Source: Candidatus Marinacidobacterales bacterium | GTDB lineage: Bacteria; Acidobacteriota; Vicinamibacteria; Marinacidobacterales; SMYC01 | Direction: 5' to 3' | Length of the DNA stretch: 64,000 bases | Assembly: GCA_965224085.1 (NCBI GenBank) | Contig: CBDCYI010000004.1 | Span: 1,632,001-1,696,000 of the forward strand | Part shown: positions 49,992 to 54,552 of the stretch, piece by piece | Layout of the letters: each line of letters begins with the position of its first letter | Position numbering within the stretch: position 1 is the first letter of the stretch | Notes under the pieces: generated by a model | The model's database searches: none | The model's input: only the letters and a program-made list of their open reading frames with translations | Told to the model about the DNA's origin: nothing | Position numbers and translations under genes: made by a program

Positions 49992-50364
49992 TGCTACCAA
50001 TCCAATGGTGTCTACGAGGTTGTCGTTCCGGTGAAGGATCTGGCGCGGGCCGAGTCCTTCTATTGCGGTGTTCTCGGACTCGAAGTTGGGATTCGGGACG
50101 AAGAACGGAGATGGCTTTTTCTACGCGCGGGAGGAACGGCGGGGATGGTTGTGCTCCAGGAAAACAAGGCGGGGTTTCCCAAGACTCATTTCGCGCTCGC
50201 GGTGAACGAGGGCGACATAGACGCCGCAGCATCTACGCTGAGGAAGCAGGGGATCACCGTCAAGGGCCCCATATTGATTGAGTGGATGCCCGCGAAATCC
50301 ATCTACTTTCGCCGATCCCGACGATCACGATTTGGAGCTGTGTGCGCTCATTGAACGACGCTAG
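49991..50364 (+). pseudogene. VOC/glyoxalase family protein with two 1-nt frameshifts (about 50002 and 50308)
   Basis: Repaired reading MLPINGVYEVVVPVKDLARAESFY...HFAL...SIYFADPDDHDLELCAL. Confidence 0.75.
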
Positions 50365-50446
50365 CAACAGAACCCTCGGCGGAGCCTCCCTACCGTTTGA
50401 CCCCCTCCTCCCAGGCCGCTACATTCCTCTTTAAATAAGGTTACGA

Positions 50447-50516
50447 ATGGCCCTCACTTCGGGAACCCGCCTAGGCCCCTACGAGATCCTCTCTCCAGTC
50501 GGCAAAGGGGGAATGG
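50447..50516 (+). pseudogene. N-terminal part of a Ser/Thr kinase gene interrupted by IS110
   Basis: MALTSGTRLGPYEILSPVGKGGM(G), which continues as GEVYKAKDTRL at 53155. Confidence 0.92.
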
Positions 50517-50557
50517 ACTCCCCACGCCGGATCAAGAGAAAACGTTCTTCGTAATAG

Positions 50558-51814
50558 TCATCCGCGATTCGCTTTTTTTGTGGGCCACCGGGAGGGGTCG
50601 TAAAGGGTTCCTTGTCGAAGCATCGCAATGGCGATGGGGAGAATGCGGTCCATGACGCCTCTGAGAGCTCTGGCATGGCTGTGGCCTCTGTCACGAAGCC
50701 GGTCGTAGTGTTCTTTGAAGTGGGGGTCGTGCAAAACGGCAGTGCGTGCCCAATGGTGGAGAGCATTATTGAGGGGCAAAGAGCGAGCTCTCCTCATCAG
50801 GATCGTTGGTCGCAACTGACCGCGCTTGCCGCTCTTTTTTGTGACAGGAGCAATGCCGCCGAGAGTCCTGAAGGCGTTGAGATTACGGAGCCGAATGGGG
50901 TCGTGGGCATAGCAGAGCACGGAGGCGAGCACGTAAGCACCGACGCCGGGCAAAGAGGCAAGAATGGCAGGGTCGGAGCAATGCTCGTCGGTTAGTGCTT
51001 GCACGCGCTTGAACCACTTCTCGAGATGCTGGTCGGAGGCACGACGATGTTGTCGAACGAGGAGCAACTGCTGGAGTAGTAGTTGGAGATGCTCGGCGGT
51101 AGCTTGAGTGGTTGCGGTTGCGACCCGGAGAGGTTTTTGTTTGAGGGTATCGAGGATCTTCTCGGGTTTTAGACGTCGGATGCGGTGTTTTTGAGCGAGG
51201 GTCTCAATGGAGTGGCGGCTAAGAGGGTTGGGGCTGGATTCGAAGAAGAGTTTTAGGAGCTCGCAGAAAAAAGCGTCGAGAGCCTTGTCCTTTGGCGCGA
51301 GCGAGACGAGGTGAGGCCAGCAACGAGTAAGGAGTTCTCGGATCTGCGAGCTGAGGGCCACATGGTTTTTGACGAGTTGGTCGCGGGTACTCAGCAACCC
51401 GCGCATAGCGAGGATCTCCGTAGGTGGGAGATGCAAGCGCTGAAAGCGGTGGCCGTCGGTTCTGAGCGAATCGGCGAGAACGAAGGCGTCTCGCCGATCA
51501 TCCTTGGCGCCGCTCATAGAATGCCGGTCGCGGAAACGGTCGACCTGCTTGGGATTGATGGAGAAAATGGCGATGCCGTGGTCAAGAAAGAGCTCGACGA
51601 CGGCCCCATGAGGTTTTTCGATCGCCACCGCGATGCGCTCGGTATCTTGCGAGGTCTCTTCCAAAAGCCAGTCGATGGTTCCCGATAGTCCTTCGCGGCT
51701 ATGGGGGAAGCCTCTCTCCGCCAAGAAGTTACCTTTGGCATCGACCACACTGGCCAAGTGAAGCCATTGACCCAGGTCGATACCGACGAAGAAGTCGTAT
51801 TTGAGTTGATTCAT
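50558..51814 (-). CDS. IS110 family DEDD recombinase/transposase
   Basis: FVGID, AIEKP, INPKQVDRFR, KDDRRDAFVLA, SLPGVG, GIAPVTKKSGK (Ser); alternative start 51826. Confidence 0.95.
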   Translation of the reverse strand: MNQLKYDFFVGIDLGQWLHLASVVDAKGNFLAERGFPHSREGLSGTIDWLLEETSQDTERIAVAIEKPHGAVVELFLDHGIAIFSINPKQVDRFRDRHSMSGAKDDRRDAFVLADSLRTDGHRFQRLHLPPTEILAMRGLLSTRDQLVKNHVALSSQIRELLTRCWPHLVSLAPKDKALDAFFCELLKLFFESSPNPLSRHSIETLAQKHRIRRLKPEKILDTLKQKPLRVATATTQATAEHLQLLLQQLLLVRQHRRASDQHLEKWFKRVQALTDEHCSDPAILASLPGVGAYVLASVLCYAHDPIRLRNLNAFRTLGGIAPVTKKSGKRGQLRPTILMRRARSLPLNNALHHWARTAVLHDPHFKEHYDRLRDRGHSHARALRGVMDRILPIAIAMLRQGTLYDPSRWPTKKANRG

Positions 51815-51840
51815 GGAAGAACTCATTTCCGCCAGCGCAT

Positions 51841-51974
51841 GTGATGTTTCATCGGCCCCTGTACTGGCGCTCGAAGCGCAACTCCCCACTGGATGTCCAT
51901 CACAAAAGAATTGCCGGCACGCATGTCCATTCCTGGCGCTAGGAGCGCAGGGCGACGTATGGCGTTGCCGGCAA
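51841..51974 (-). ncRNA. IS110 bridge RNA core (target-binding loop, then donor-binding loop)
   Basis: Two stem-closed loops, each with a GCGCT-nnn-AGCGC inner hairpin, flanked by guides matching the insertion site and both element ends; transcript ends not determined. Confidence 0.85.
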
Positions 51975-52021
51975 GCTGCTGACGAAATCGAAAATAGTCC
52001 AAGCTCATCGTGATATTTGCT

Positions 52022-52438
52022 CTACCATGGCAATCGGAGTTGTCGCGCGATGCCACGAGTTCGTGCTCGGTTTTTTCTCGGTAGTTTCGGGCGAAGCACG
52101 TCCGAGAGTTTTTCTCGAATGTAAAGAACATAAGGCGGGTCTAGATATTGACTTTGCACTTCCTGGAGCACAGGTGAAAAATAACGAAGGGAGCGAATGG
52201 GCTGCAGTGGCTCCTCATGTTCTTGTAGCTCCCTACGAGCGCAACCCAGAAGTAGGGCACACTCGAATTCGTGTAACGGGACTCCTTGGCGGTAGAGCTG
52301 CGTCGCGATGAAGCGGTCGTCGCGCCGTGGCCGCTCAGGTGTGTTCGGAATGGAAAGATAGAGGTCCAAAATCGTCCGGACGTAATTGTTTTCTGTCAGA
52401 GCATCGCTCGTGAGCGGTTCATTACCCAGCTTCGACAT
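52022..52438 (-). CDS. Hypothetical 138-aa accessory protein inside IS110
   Basis: Intact ORF overlapping the upstream ORF; YVRTILDLY...LYRQGVPL...PIRSLRYFSPVLQEV. Confidence 0.7.
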   Translation of the reverse strand: MSKLGNEPLTSDALTENNYVRTILDLYLSIPNTPERPRRDDRFIATQLYRQGVPLHEFECALLLGCARRELQEHEEPLQPIRSLRYFSPVLQEVQSQYLDPPYVLYIREKLSDVLRPKLPRKNRARTRGIARQLRLPW

Positions 52439-52835
52439 CCTTTAGCCTCCCGCGTCGGCCGCAGATACAGCATTTGGCATATCTGATACTGTCAATCTTC
52501 GTTTTCATTGAATGAGCCATCGGGCCACTAGCTTGAATTTCACGAACTCCTAGACTGCCAGAATTACTGGGGTGAATGAACCCTTGCTCCGTCACTATTT
52601 TCGCCGCCTGGCGTAGACGATAATTCTGTTGCCGAGCCGCGTGGAGTTTTCGTGAGTTGAAACCTTTCTGGTAATTTCGGTTATTTTCGCGCTGGTTCTC
52701 TCGCCGGGTTTCGTCACGGCAGGTTGGACCGCAGTAGCACTGTCCCTGGTAACATGACTTGCAGATGAAGAAAGGCATCCCACAGCTTTTGTTGCGGCAG
52801 AAAAGCCGGAGAAGAACGACAGGTTTGGTGGCCAT
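52422..52835 (-). CDS. Cys-rich putative Zn-finger protein inside IS110
   Basis: CRNKSC, CKSC, CYCGPTC, basic helix, terminal CCICG; start may be 52931. Confidence 0.7.
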   Translation of the reverse strand: MATKPVVLLRLFCRNKSCGMPFFICKSCYQGQCYCGPTCRDETRRENQRENNRNYQKGFNSRKLHAARQQNYRLRQAAKIVTEQGFIHPSNSGSLGVREIQASGPMAHSMKTKIDSIRYAKCCICGRRGRLKDVEAG

Positions 52836-53153
52836 TCGGAACTCAGCAAAGTGCTGGACGATGGCCGCCCGGATGTGAGAGGCTAGCTTCAACTTGTAGT
52901 GGAGCGCCTCCTCCGGGGGCCATCCAAACATCAGAGCCCCGGTCGTTTGTAGCGGCTGGGGCTCACTATTGTCGCACAGCAGGTTCACCCTCTTCTTGCC
53001 GGCGCGAGACGATCTGACTGACTCGCGCCAAAGGCGCGAGAGGATGCTGGCCTCGCGCCAGAGGCGCGGGATGAGGCCTTGTACACAGACATTTCCTACC
53101 GACTCTTCCCGCAACACACGCTTTCGCTGCACTGATGCTTCGGCAAGCGTACA

Positions 53154-54552
53154 GGGCGAGGTCTACAAAGCCAAAGACACTCGGCTCGACCGCACAGTGG
53201 CCATCAAAGTCCTCCCCGAGCACCTCGCAGAAAGCCCCGAACGCAAGGCGCGCTTCGAGCGTGAGGCCAAGGCGATTTCGCAGCTCAATCATCCTCACAT
53301 TTGCACCCTTTATGACGTAGGCGAGCAAGACGGGGTCGATTATCTCGTCATGGAGTACATCGAAGGGGAAACGCTGGCGAACGCGCTGAAGCGCGGTGCC
53401 CTGCCACTCGATAAGGCGCTCGAATACGGCATTCAAATCGCGGATGGTCTGGACACGGCGCATCGCGCGGGCATCGTCCACCGAGATCTGAAACCCGCCA
53501 ATGCGATGCTGACGAAGCCCGGTATCAAGCTCTTGGATTTCGGCCTGGCGAGGCTCATCAAAGAAGACGACGGTCCCGAGACATCCGATGCACTTACACG
53601 GCAGAGAGATCTACCAAGGAAGAATCCATCATCGGGACGCTTCAGTACATGGCTCCCGAACAGCTGGAACGGAGGCCGGCGGATGCGCGGACAGACATCT
53701 TCGCTATGGGCGTTGTGCTGTACGAGATGGTTACCGGAAACAAGGCGTTTGCGGGCGAAAGCCAGGCGAGCTTGATCGGCGCTATCTTAAAAGACGATCC
53801 GCCGTCCCTGTCTGCGTTCTCCCCGATGTCGCCTCCGGCGCTGGACCATGTCGTCAAGACGTGCCTCGCCAAAGATCCCGACGAGCGATGCCAGTCAGCG
53901 GGCGAGGTGGAACGCAACTTGAAGTGGATCCGCGACGCCGGAGCCGATGCCAAAGTGTCTGCTCCAACGGGTGTTACTCGACGCGGGTTCTGGTCGCTTT
54001 GTCGACGTACTCCTGGGCGCCGCGCTCGCGACGGCTGTCACGGCCCTTGTCGTCATTGCGCTCATTCGGCCCGACGCACCGCACGTATCTCGCTTAGCTA
54101 TATCCGCTCCGCTCGGGCAACCCATTTCTATGTCGAATTGGAACGTGGACTTGGCGATCTCACCGGACGGCAGCCGGATCGTCTACGTTGGCCAAATCGA
54201 GACAGGAGAACGACAGCTCTTCATTCGTCGTTTGGATCAATACGAACCTGAAGCTCTAGACGGAACGGGTCCTGACCCTCGGAATCCGTTTTTCTCGCCC
54301 GACGGATCGTGGGTGGGGTATGTTGAGGACGTCCAGCCTCGGCGCCTGATGAGGGTCTCCACCCTGGGCGGTCCGCCACTTGTCATCGGTGCGGGCGTCT
54401 TCGTGTGGGGTGCCAGCTGGGGCGCGGACGACAAAACATCATCTTCGCCGAGCGAGGGCGCCTCCTTCGCGTCTCGGCCAGCGGTGGCGAGCCGGAGATT
54501 CTGGCGGCCGCGGATGGGCTCTTCTACTCCTGGCCGGACGTGTTGCCCGGAC
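53154..54552 (+). pseudogene. Remainder of the Ser/Thr kinase-TM-TolB gene; frameshifts near 53613, 53995 and 54433, truncated near 54552
   Basis: VAIKVL, HRDLKPAN, KLLDFGLA, GTLQYMAPEQ, TM segment, AISPDGSRIVY, PFFSPDG. Confidence 0.9.

Follow-up and report, generated by a model that had tools for sequence, protein, structure and literature searches.

An IS110-family element in a kinase gene of a Marinacidobacterales bacterium, with a bridge RNA very probably programmed for the glycine-rich loop

Bridge RNAs were described in 2024, and their known natural targets are mainly intergenic repeats. Here, we analyze an IS110-family element that interrupts a Hanks-type Ser/Thr kinase gene of Candidatus Marinacidobacterales bacterium (assembly GCA_965224085.1). 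The window, that is, the whole stretch of DNA analyzed, comprises 64,000 nucleotides (nt) of contig CBDCYI010000004.1 (positions 1,632,001 to 1,696,000), and coordinates refer to it unless another contig is named. As judged from the sequence, the element is very probably an active or recently active insertion whose bridge RNA is programmed for DNA encoding the kinase glycine-rich loop, or G-loop (G-x-G-G-M-G-D/E-V).

The element and the interrupted kinase gene

The kinase gene runs on the plus strand and the element on the minus strand. Protein lengths are in residues (aa), ORF denotes open reading frame, and dN/dS is the ratio of non-synonymous to synonymous substitution rates. The locus consists of the following parts:

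50447..50516, plus strand: Hanks-type Ser/Thr kinase gene, 5' fragment that begins at the start codon and breaks off after G-K-G-G-M, read directly from the sequence
50517..53153, minus strand: body of the IS110-family element, 2,637 bp (2,639 bp counting one copy of the core)
50517..50557, minus strand: right end (RE), non-coding, ending ...GTGGGGAGT, followed by the core
50558..51814, minus strand: IS110-family RNA-guided transposase, 418 aa from ATG 51814 (MNQLKYDFF...)
51820..52001, minus strand: bridge RNA, just upstream of the transposase gene, with an outer stem enclosing the target loop and then the donor loop
52022..52438, minus strand: ORF o138, 138 aa, a predicted helical bundle, dN/dS 0.30-0.34
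52422..52835, minus strand: cysteine-rich ORF, 137 aa from ATG 52835
52836..53153, minus strand: left end (LE), non-coding, about 318 nt, beginning TGTACGCTTGCC
53154..53162, plus strand: second core GG and GCGAGGT, the latter being the left target in the element's view
53155..54551, plus strand: rest of the kinase gene, decayed through frame changes and covering the kinase domain with part of its beta-propeller tail

In the orientation of the element, the order is therefore LE, cysteine-rich ORF, o138 ORF, bridge RNA, transposase, and RE. The N-terminal DEDD RuvC-like domain of the transposase matches PF01548 over profile positions 1-155 of 155 (E = 3.1e-31, 108.7 bits, cut-off 29), and its C-terminal Tnp domain matches PF02371 (E = 1.2e-11, 45.3 bits, cut-off 21.3). 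The protein is also recognized by the NCBIfam equivalog NF033542, 'IS110 family RNA-guided transposase' (162.9 bits, cut-off 140), and among PDB sequences it matches the IS621 transposase, in the C-terminal domain only (E = 2.2e-7). The whole source genome (G000) holds 41 matches to the IS110 DEDD domain, spread over a number of distinct families, each of 8-10 near-identical copies.

From its ATG at 50447 (MALTSGTRLGPYEILSPVGKGGM) the kinase ORF runs up to the element, and it picks up again at the codon GGC 53155 (GGC GAG GTC, that is, GEVYKAKDTRLDRTVAIKVL). Along the plus strand, the junctions read GGAAT (50510-50514), core GG (50515-50516), element (50517-53153, ACTCCCC...GTACA), GG (53154-53155), and GCGAGGT (53156-53162), and the break point (slash) lies within GGA-ATG-G/GC-GAG-GT of the kinase gene. 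GGAAT with its core GG (50510-50516) represents, in the element's view, the core plus the right-target half. Joined, the two halves give GGAATGGGCGAGGT, which encodes G-M-G-E-V, just as a first-pass annotation made from the sequence had read the site.

The empty site can be seen in the closest homologue, an uninterrupted gene with 82% identity in a genome of the same genus (G454). It reads ...GGA GGT ATG GGC GAG GTT... (protein GKGGMGEVF), with one GG where the window has two, and its N-terminus, which matches the 50447..50516 fragment, runs on into the kinase domain. Since GG stands at both junctions and only once in the uninterrupted homologue, the core is GG (CC in the orientation of the element). 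Duplication at insertion was limited to this core.

Beyond the element, the kinase domain is still recognized by PF00069 (G000:C4:1685155-1685574, equal to window 53155-53574; E = 1.1e-31, from profile position 13). In tblastn comparisons with paralogues the frame shifts at least three times, first near 53605, then between 53957 and 54154, and once more near 54432, in agreement with the downstream frameshifts that the first-pass annotation had reported. Just upstream of the kinase gene, a glyoxalase-family ORF (50031-50354) matches profile positions 10-98 of 121 only; the C-terminal motif expected for it (..DPDDHDLEL..) falls, as judged by eye, in a different frame, and this ORF may be frameshifted too.

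Guides of the bridge RNA

The bridge RNA folds with two internal loops, each closed by a GCGCU-NNN-AGCGC hairpin. The first loop carries two guides for the target and the second loop two guides for the donor:

51950..51958, minus strand: left target guide ACGUCGC-CC, with the sense of left target plus core; pairs with the bottom strand
51927..51933, minus strand: right target guide GGAAUGG, complementary to core plus right target (CC-ATTCC), 7/7
51881..51889, minus strand: left donor guide GUGGGGAGU, identical to the 9 nt that close the RE, 9/9
51858..51864, minus strand: right donor guide GUACAGG, complementary to core plus the first 5 nt of the LE (CC-TGTAC), 7/7

The 5' guide of each loop thus shares the sense of the left target or left donor, and the 3' guide is complementary to the core plus the right target or right donor. 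The target in element orientation is ACCTCGC-CC-ATTCC, and the left target guide agrees with its flank, ACCTCGC-CC, at 8 of 9 positions. On the plus strand the target guides appear as CCATTCC at 51927-51933 (reverse complement of GGAATGG) and GGGCGACGT at 51950-51958. Read in the sense of the kinase gene they specify GGAATGGGCGACGT (G-M-G-D-V), the 14-mer that the first-pass annotation had derived and whose guides are now placed; 13 of its 14 positions are as in the real site. As a measure of chance agreement, the 6.87-Mb genome holds not one exact copy of this 14-mer and just three sites that differ by a single base. The joined ends of the element are ...GTGGGGAGT-CC-TGTAC..., and the donor guides correspond to them: ACTCCCCAC at 51881-51889 of the plus strand equals the left end of the element on that strand, and CCTGTAC at 51858-51864 is the reverse complement of its right end GTACAGG.

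This arrangement closely resembles that of IS621 and the IS110 group (Durrant 2024, PMC11208160; Hiraizumi 2024). In IS621, target recognition falls to the first loop and donor recognition to the second, with the core included in the pairing, and the 5' side of a loop pairs with the bottom strand over 8-9 nt and the 3' side with the top strand over 4-7 nt (PMC11208160). Likewise, the present element has a DEDD and Tnp recombinase, a bridge RNA that lies 5' to the recombinase gene and whose target loop precedes its donor loop, 5' guides for the bottom strand (9 nt) and 3' guides for the top strand (7 nt), a 2-nt core common to donor and target, a 14-nt target divided as 7 + 2 + 5, and no duplication past the core.

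Conservation of the RNA structure is evident from its homologues. A covariance model (R1), built from four variants, scores the window bridge RNA at 224.4 bits; RNAalifold had mispaired the donor guides of the four sequences, and the structure of the model was therefore written by hand. Among 84 distinct homologues, 93.1% of the cells are paired, compared with 77.5% in shuffles, in an alignment that was itself fitted to the model. Compensatory double changes occur in 29 of 36 pairs, and helix 5 is invariant because the search pattern fixed it. None of 500 shuffles attains these values, and slid controls give 27-43%. Since G-U pairs turn up in more than one place (one pair has 18 U-G), the alignment favours transcription of the bridge RNA from the transposase strand. 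In public runs, contigs from RNA libraries overlap the transposase and o138 genes in part, at 90-97% likeness, and this is no proof of transcription.

Insertion sites of copies and relatives

A blastn search of the 6.87-Mb assembly with the element found about 12 copies or fragments, and the covariance model found 10 bridge-RNA copies. Subfamily A is 98-100% identical to the window copy, and all its members end at the same bases. Subfamily B is 85-90% identical and carries the guides ACTTCGC-CC and GGTATGG; an old fragment, C9b, is about 75% identical. The sites of the copies (win, the window copy) are:

win: kinase G-loop, GGAATGGGCGAGGT
C11a: kinase G-loop, GGAATGGGTGACGT
C9a: kinase G-loop, GGGATGGGGGACGT
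C5b: kinase G-loop, GGGATGGGCGTCGT
C4b: kinase G-loop, GGTATGG, left half only
C11c: kinase G-loop, GGTATGG, left half only
C9b: kinase G-loop, GCGAGGT, right half only
C11b: non-kinase, ORF with PD40 and amidohydrolase
C4c: non-kinase, RNB/RNase R-like ORF
C5a, C5d, C5c: non-kinase, no family for the flanking DNA

Seven of the 12 copies or fragments thus lie in kinase G-loops. GGTATGG sites hold two of the three subfamily-B copies, as the B guide specifies, so that guide and target vary together. All three B copies have open transposase frames, yet a perfect kinase target at C5 2126713 is empty. A number of copies have been shortened, have lost internal sequence, or adjoin an inverted end fragment (G000:C11:764527-766952, C4:1482064-1483630, C9:115705-118259, and C5:333078-334702), which suggests element-mediated rearrangements.

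The kinases flanking the copies are different paralogues at the protein level, a point that bears on how the element reached them. It could be supposed that an interrupted kinase gene spread by homologous recombination, gene conversion, or segmental duplication, given that the kinase paralogues have 65-85% DNA identity around the site and that C4b, C11c, C9a, and C5d are rearranged or truncated. Such spread is contradicted by the diverged flanks that surround near-identical elements, as the kinases are clearly different and the subfamily-A elements are 98-100% identical. Moreover, every junction is base-exact, the ATG-G/GC junction is common to the non-kinase copies too, and independent metagenome contigs hold different kinases with different guide variants. 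We consider this explanation extremely unlikely.

The state of the kinase genes bears on another possibility. The first-pass annotation had seen in the insertion a hint of a reversible kinase knockout; in its host-beneficial form, precise excision would restore the Gly-Met-Gly codons and the element would toggle kinases as a switch. Scarless excision is described for IS110 elements (PMC11208160), and the insertion adds nothing past the core, so that exact excision of the element would restore the ORF. In contrast, the window kinase has its several frame changes, the C9a kinase remnant breaks off 7 residues past the junction, and a PF00069 search did not find the C11a kinase remnant. Excision of IS621 is reported to be less efficient than insertion (PMC13626964), and in another study it is reported to proceed mainly by single-strand copy-out, with the donor site remaining occupied (bioRxiv 10.64898/2026.08.31.748434). 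Among assembled contigs of public runs there was no circle junction and no empty-site allele assignable to the source organism, and where contigs stop at 53154 with ...GxGGM loose ends, they represent uninterrupted paralogues or orthologues. Because the hit kinases decay and IS621 excision is reported as inefficient or mainly copy-out, a reversible switch is left without support and is very unlikely, and the hint did not hold up.

The reading of a bridge RNA programmed for the kinase G-loop gains from relatives in other genomes. A peptide-seeded scan of species-representative genomes gave 60 loci, of which two are close. At one (L063), the transposase is 90% identical and the same three-gene layout is present in a truncated element; at the other (L047), the transposase is 62% identical and the element measures about 2.0 kb. 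Both lie in a kinase G-loop. An in-frame kinase query matches exactly at these two junctions and at none of the 58 more distant loci. The start of the LE recurs in both, and the same RE end is found in L047 and in metagenome loci. In a class sample of 151 genomes, RNA matches above 190 bits are restricted to the source genome (10 copies), one genome of the same genus, and one of the same family.

A scan of metagenome contigs with a pattern from the donor loop only yielded at least 120 stretches, of which 80 listed loci are the basis of the metagenome counts. The covariance model matched 85 bridge RNAs among the listed loci and genomes, and these matches fall into two tiers, 20 bridge RNAs above 160 bits and 65 at 55-108 bits. 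Among the matches listed, transposase identity to the window is 62-92% in the top tier and 33-44% in the rest, and accessory ORFs lie upstream of the RNA in 16 of 16 top-tier metagenome members and in none of the 64 other loci. Traits independent of the guides, namely transposase identity and accessory ORFs, hence delimit the same top-tier set as the covariance model.

Outside the source genome there are 18 top-tier loci. A motif search found the junction in 11 of these, and all 11 flank kinase G-loops, reading ...LGxGGM next to the RE and G[EV]VYRA.D..L.R.VA next to the LE; the other seven are on short contigs or without an end motif. Pooled over own and other genomes, 18 of 23 readable junctions are in kinase G-loops. 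The first-pass annotation had looked to repeated insertion at GGMG as support and to mostly non-kinase flanks as the contrary outcome. The flanks, kinase G-loops in 7 of 12 own-genome and 11 of 11 other junctions, fall on the former side, though five own-genome copies are non-kinase.

Guides in this clade can be compared with their real flanks. The right target guide matches exactly at five of nine loci and is one (wobble) base off at four, and the left target guide is 1, 1, 3, 1, and 2 bases off at the five loci with an LE junction. The lower tier (loci L118-L197) serves as a control on the assignment of the guides: its 65 bridge RNAs have the same donor guides and many unrelated target guides (CGAACGG, GGGGGGG, and GGGTAGG among them), and of 41 right target guides compared there with the real flank, 28 agree fully and 8 miss by a single base, against exact matches in 5% of shuffled pairings.

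Read in the kinase sense, the 20 top-tier guide sets comprise 13 distinct 14-mers, with core bases taken from the right guide only (a core variant in the left guide of L197 is not counted). Positions 1, 2, 4-8, 11, 13, and 14 are invariant, and position 10 deviates in one set (L143, Glu to Gln). Variation is found at position 3 (four bases), position 9 (three bases), and position 12 (four bases), which are the third positions of GGN, GGN, and GAN in GGN-ATG-GGN-GAN-GT. G-M-G-D/E followed by GT is read by 19 of the 20 sets.

These guides bear on a simpler explanation, in which the target is an arbitrary GC-rich 14-mer that incidentally overlaps a common coding motif and the kinases have no special meaning. 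The non-kinase copies are in its favour, as are the sister elements that carry many unrelated targets with the same donor ends and the scarcity of kinases among near-target sites in the source genome. The subfamily-A 14-mer has no exact site, three one-mismatch sites, none of them in a kinase, and 104 two-mismatch sites, of which eight are kinase-like. The count of kinase paralogues within one or two mismatches that the first-pass annotation had proposed thus gives eight kinase-like sites, all at two mismatches. The subfamily-B target has one exact site, in an intact kinase gene, and seven one-mismatch sites, three of them kinase-like. Against an incidental overlap stand the pooled junctions, the persistence of the kinase habit down to 62% transposase identity, and the guides themselves. 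Because the 13 guide 14-mers differ only at wobble positions, save in one set of 20, and so keep G-M-G-D/E-V, an arbitrary DNA word is very unlikely. The first-pass view, in which the landing pad is a coding motif conserved across a multicopy gene family, is supported both by the guides of 20 RNAs, confined almost entirely to wobble changes, and by the junctions.

Several points nevertheless weigh against a bridge RNA programmed for the G-loop. Five of the 12 own-genome copies lie outside kinases, at ATG-G/GC-like cores. These sites have AT-GG on the left in three of three cases with that junction and G-C on the right in four of four, and their mismatches to the A guides number 2, 3, and 5 out of 14. 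The 14-mer alone is not kinase-specific, since 8 of 107 sites within two mismatches of the A target are kinase-like, and the exact 14/14 B target in a kinase (G000:C5, minus strand, 2126713, ..LGKGGMGEVWLADD..) is unoccupied. For the 5' donor guide, the match is to the 9 nt preceding the core, in a register 2 nt off that of the target loop and with the core excluded. The clade was delimited by a model from four kinase-targeting members, and an Rfam scan of 50300-53400 found no curated family and one chance-level match (GRIK4 3' untranslated region element, E = 7.4). About half of the IS621 insertions at non-target sites are attributed to half-match recombination (bioRxiv 10.64898/2026.08.31.748434), and by analogy this process may bear on the five non-kinase copies.

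Mechanism, accessory genes, and host kinases

Based on these observations, the element would work as follows. The bridge RNA, transcribed from the transposase strand, would guide recombination as in IS621. Guides in its first loop, antisense to GGN ATG GGN GAN GT, would pair with the kinase DNA, and the joined ends of the element (...GTGGGGAGT-CC-TGTAC...) would pair with the second loop. The CC/GG core would be the site of recombination, and the element would come to lie between ATG-G and GC within the Met-Gly codons, in every case antisense to the kinase. The motif is presumably fixed by protein selection and recurs in dozens of paralogues, each of which would be dispensable, and the guides appear to drift along synonymous codon space only. 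Being conserved by protein selection and multiplied in a large paralogous family, the motif would constitute a renewable, horizontally portable landing pad.

The present target, a protein-coding motif of a paralogous family, is unlike the REP-like (repetitive extragenic palindrome-like) intergenic repeat targeted by IS621, and the core is CC where that of IS621 is CT (PMC11208160). The clade also differs from IS621 in its 600-1,200 nt with one or two accessory ORFs between LE and bridge RNA, and sequence identity between the transposases is low (PDB match E = 2e-7, C-terminal domain only).

Site specificity is known from other IS110/IS1111 members. The IS1111-attC group inserts into integron attC sites, IS4321/IS5075 into the inverted repeats of the Tn21 family, and IS900-like elements between the ribosome-binding site and the start codon. 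The present element is similar to these in using a conserved repeated sequence as a safe, portable landing site. Their targets are non-coding or structural DNA, whereas the present target would owe its conservation to selection on an amino-acid motif, with guide variation limited to synonymous positions. Inteins, homing endonuclease genes, and group I/II introns recur at the same conserved protein motif across species, and the likeness to them is conceptual, in that both exploit the sequence of a catalytic motif that the host cannot freely change. In contrast to the present element, which disrupts the gene and depends on paralogue redundancy, homing elements splice out at the RNA or protein level and leave the host gene functional. 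Full-text literature searches returned no paper linking IS110 elements or bridge RNAs to kinase genes or protein-motif targets; the list of target motifs by guide bin in Durrant 2024 (Supplementary Data 2) lies outside their coverage and may already contain the motif.

Of the two accessory ORFs, the cysteine-rich one has a dN/dS of 0.32. A listed 236-aa version of this ORF, from 53132, is an over-extension, because its 99-codon N-terminal extension has a dN/dS of 1.1-2.2 and relatives begin at the internal Met (MAAKPVVL). Eight Cys are invariant in the alignment, and the AlphaFold2 (AF2) model (predicted local distance difference test score, pLDDT, 74.7) combines a beta-hairpin with two long helices and a knuckle at the C-terminus. 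The AF2 model of o138 has five helices (mean pLDDT 80.3). Searches of Pfam, NCBIfam, and PHROGs gave no family for either ORF, and Foldseek searches of the PDB with both models gave no match at E<=0.001. An AAA+ lid/DnaD-like helical domain was not assigned to o138, as its VIA-align Z of 5-7 is below the level that is meaningful for helical bundles with this tool.

Homologues of o138 occur in the kinase-targeting clade and in IS21-like elements. Those of the cysteine-rich ORF occur in 21 of 401 genomes of a phylum sample (a count that includes the source genome and the unpublished G049), and they are multicopy in three (G385, G015, and G393), flanking an IstA-like transposase. At L032, the locus searched with Pfam, there is an IstB gene besides the IstA-like transposase (PF01695, E = 2.4e-56). 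Accessory-ORF homologues stand beside istA/istB of multicopy IS21-like elements at L032, L034, and L037. Since multicopy homologues flank IstA-like and IstB genes, the accessory proteins accompany IS21-like elements as well. Just 29-36 nt separate the LE from the downstream RNA in two sister IS110 elements, and for this reason the accessory genes look like an insertion specific to the kinase-targeting clade. The proteins may help the element live inside transcribed genes.

A sigma-70 promoter scan of 50400-53300 gave no sites, and a promoter proposed by eye across RE-core-LE (TTGATC - 17 nt - TACGCT) was rejected because it fails the criteria of the scan. The LE was also rejected as source of a new kinase N-terminus; the frame from element to kinase is open for 85 codons in the window copy, and for just 5, 22, and 33 codons in the relatives L124, L063, and L133.

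A possible effect on host kinases was approached by counting GGNATGGGNGANGT sites and Pkinase matches (E<=1e-20; matches are not gene counts) in the source genome and four genomes of the same genus:

G000 (source genome): 13 sites, 40 Pkinase matches, 0.33 per match
G438 (same genus): 33 sites, 39 Pkinase matches, 0.85 per match
G468 (same genus): 52 sites, 93 Pkinase matches, 0.56 per match
G450 (same genus): 55 sites, 90 Pkinase matches, 0.61 per match
G454 (same genus): 80 sites, 119 Pkinase matches, 0.67 per match

The reversed pattern, used as control, gives 0-2 sites per genome. Ten of the 13 sites in the source genome are in kinases, and seven further kinase sites are occupied by the element. 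The source genome also has fewer Pkinase matches per Mb than the four others. As a lead rather than a result, from one genome compared with four relatives, its low site count may reflect erosion or recoding of target kinases. A tentative and rather doubtful extension is that this lineage of insertion sequences parasitises a protein motif and is engaged in a codon-level contest with the kinome, in which the guides explore only synonymous versions and hosts with active copies lose or recode those kinases that spell it.

With a bridge RNA programmed for the G-loop as the preferred reading, a whole clade would be directed at the codons of a catalytic protein motif. Its 13 reprogrammed guide sets, together with real insertion sites, form a natural series from which the positions that tolerate mismatch can be read. 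Two accessory proteins of unassigned family travel with both IS110 and IS21 elements. An RNA-guided element can, on this evidence, use selection on host proteins to keep its landing pad stable across species, and the insertions suggest a capacity of such elements to thin out a large family of regulatory genes.

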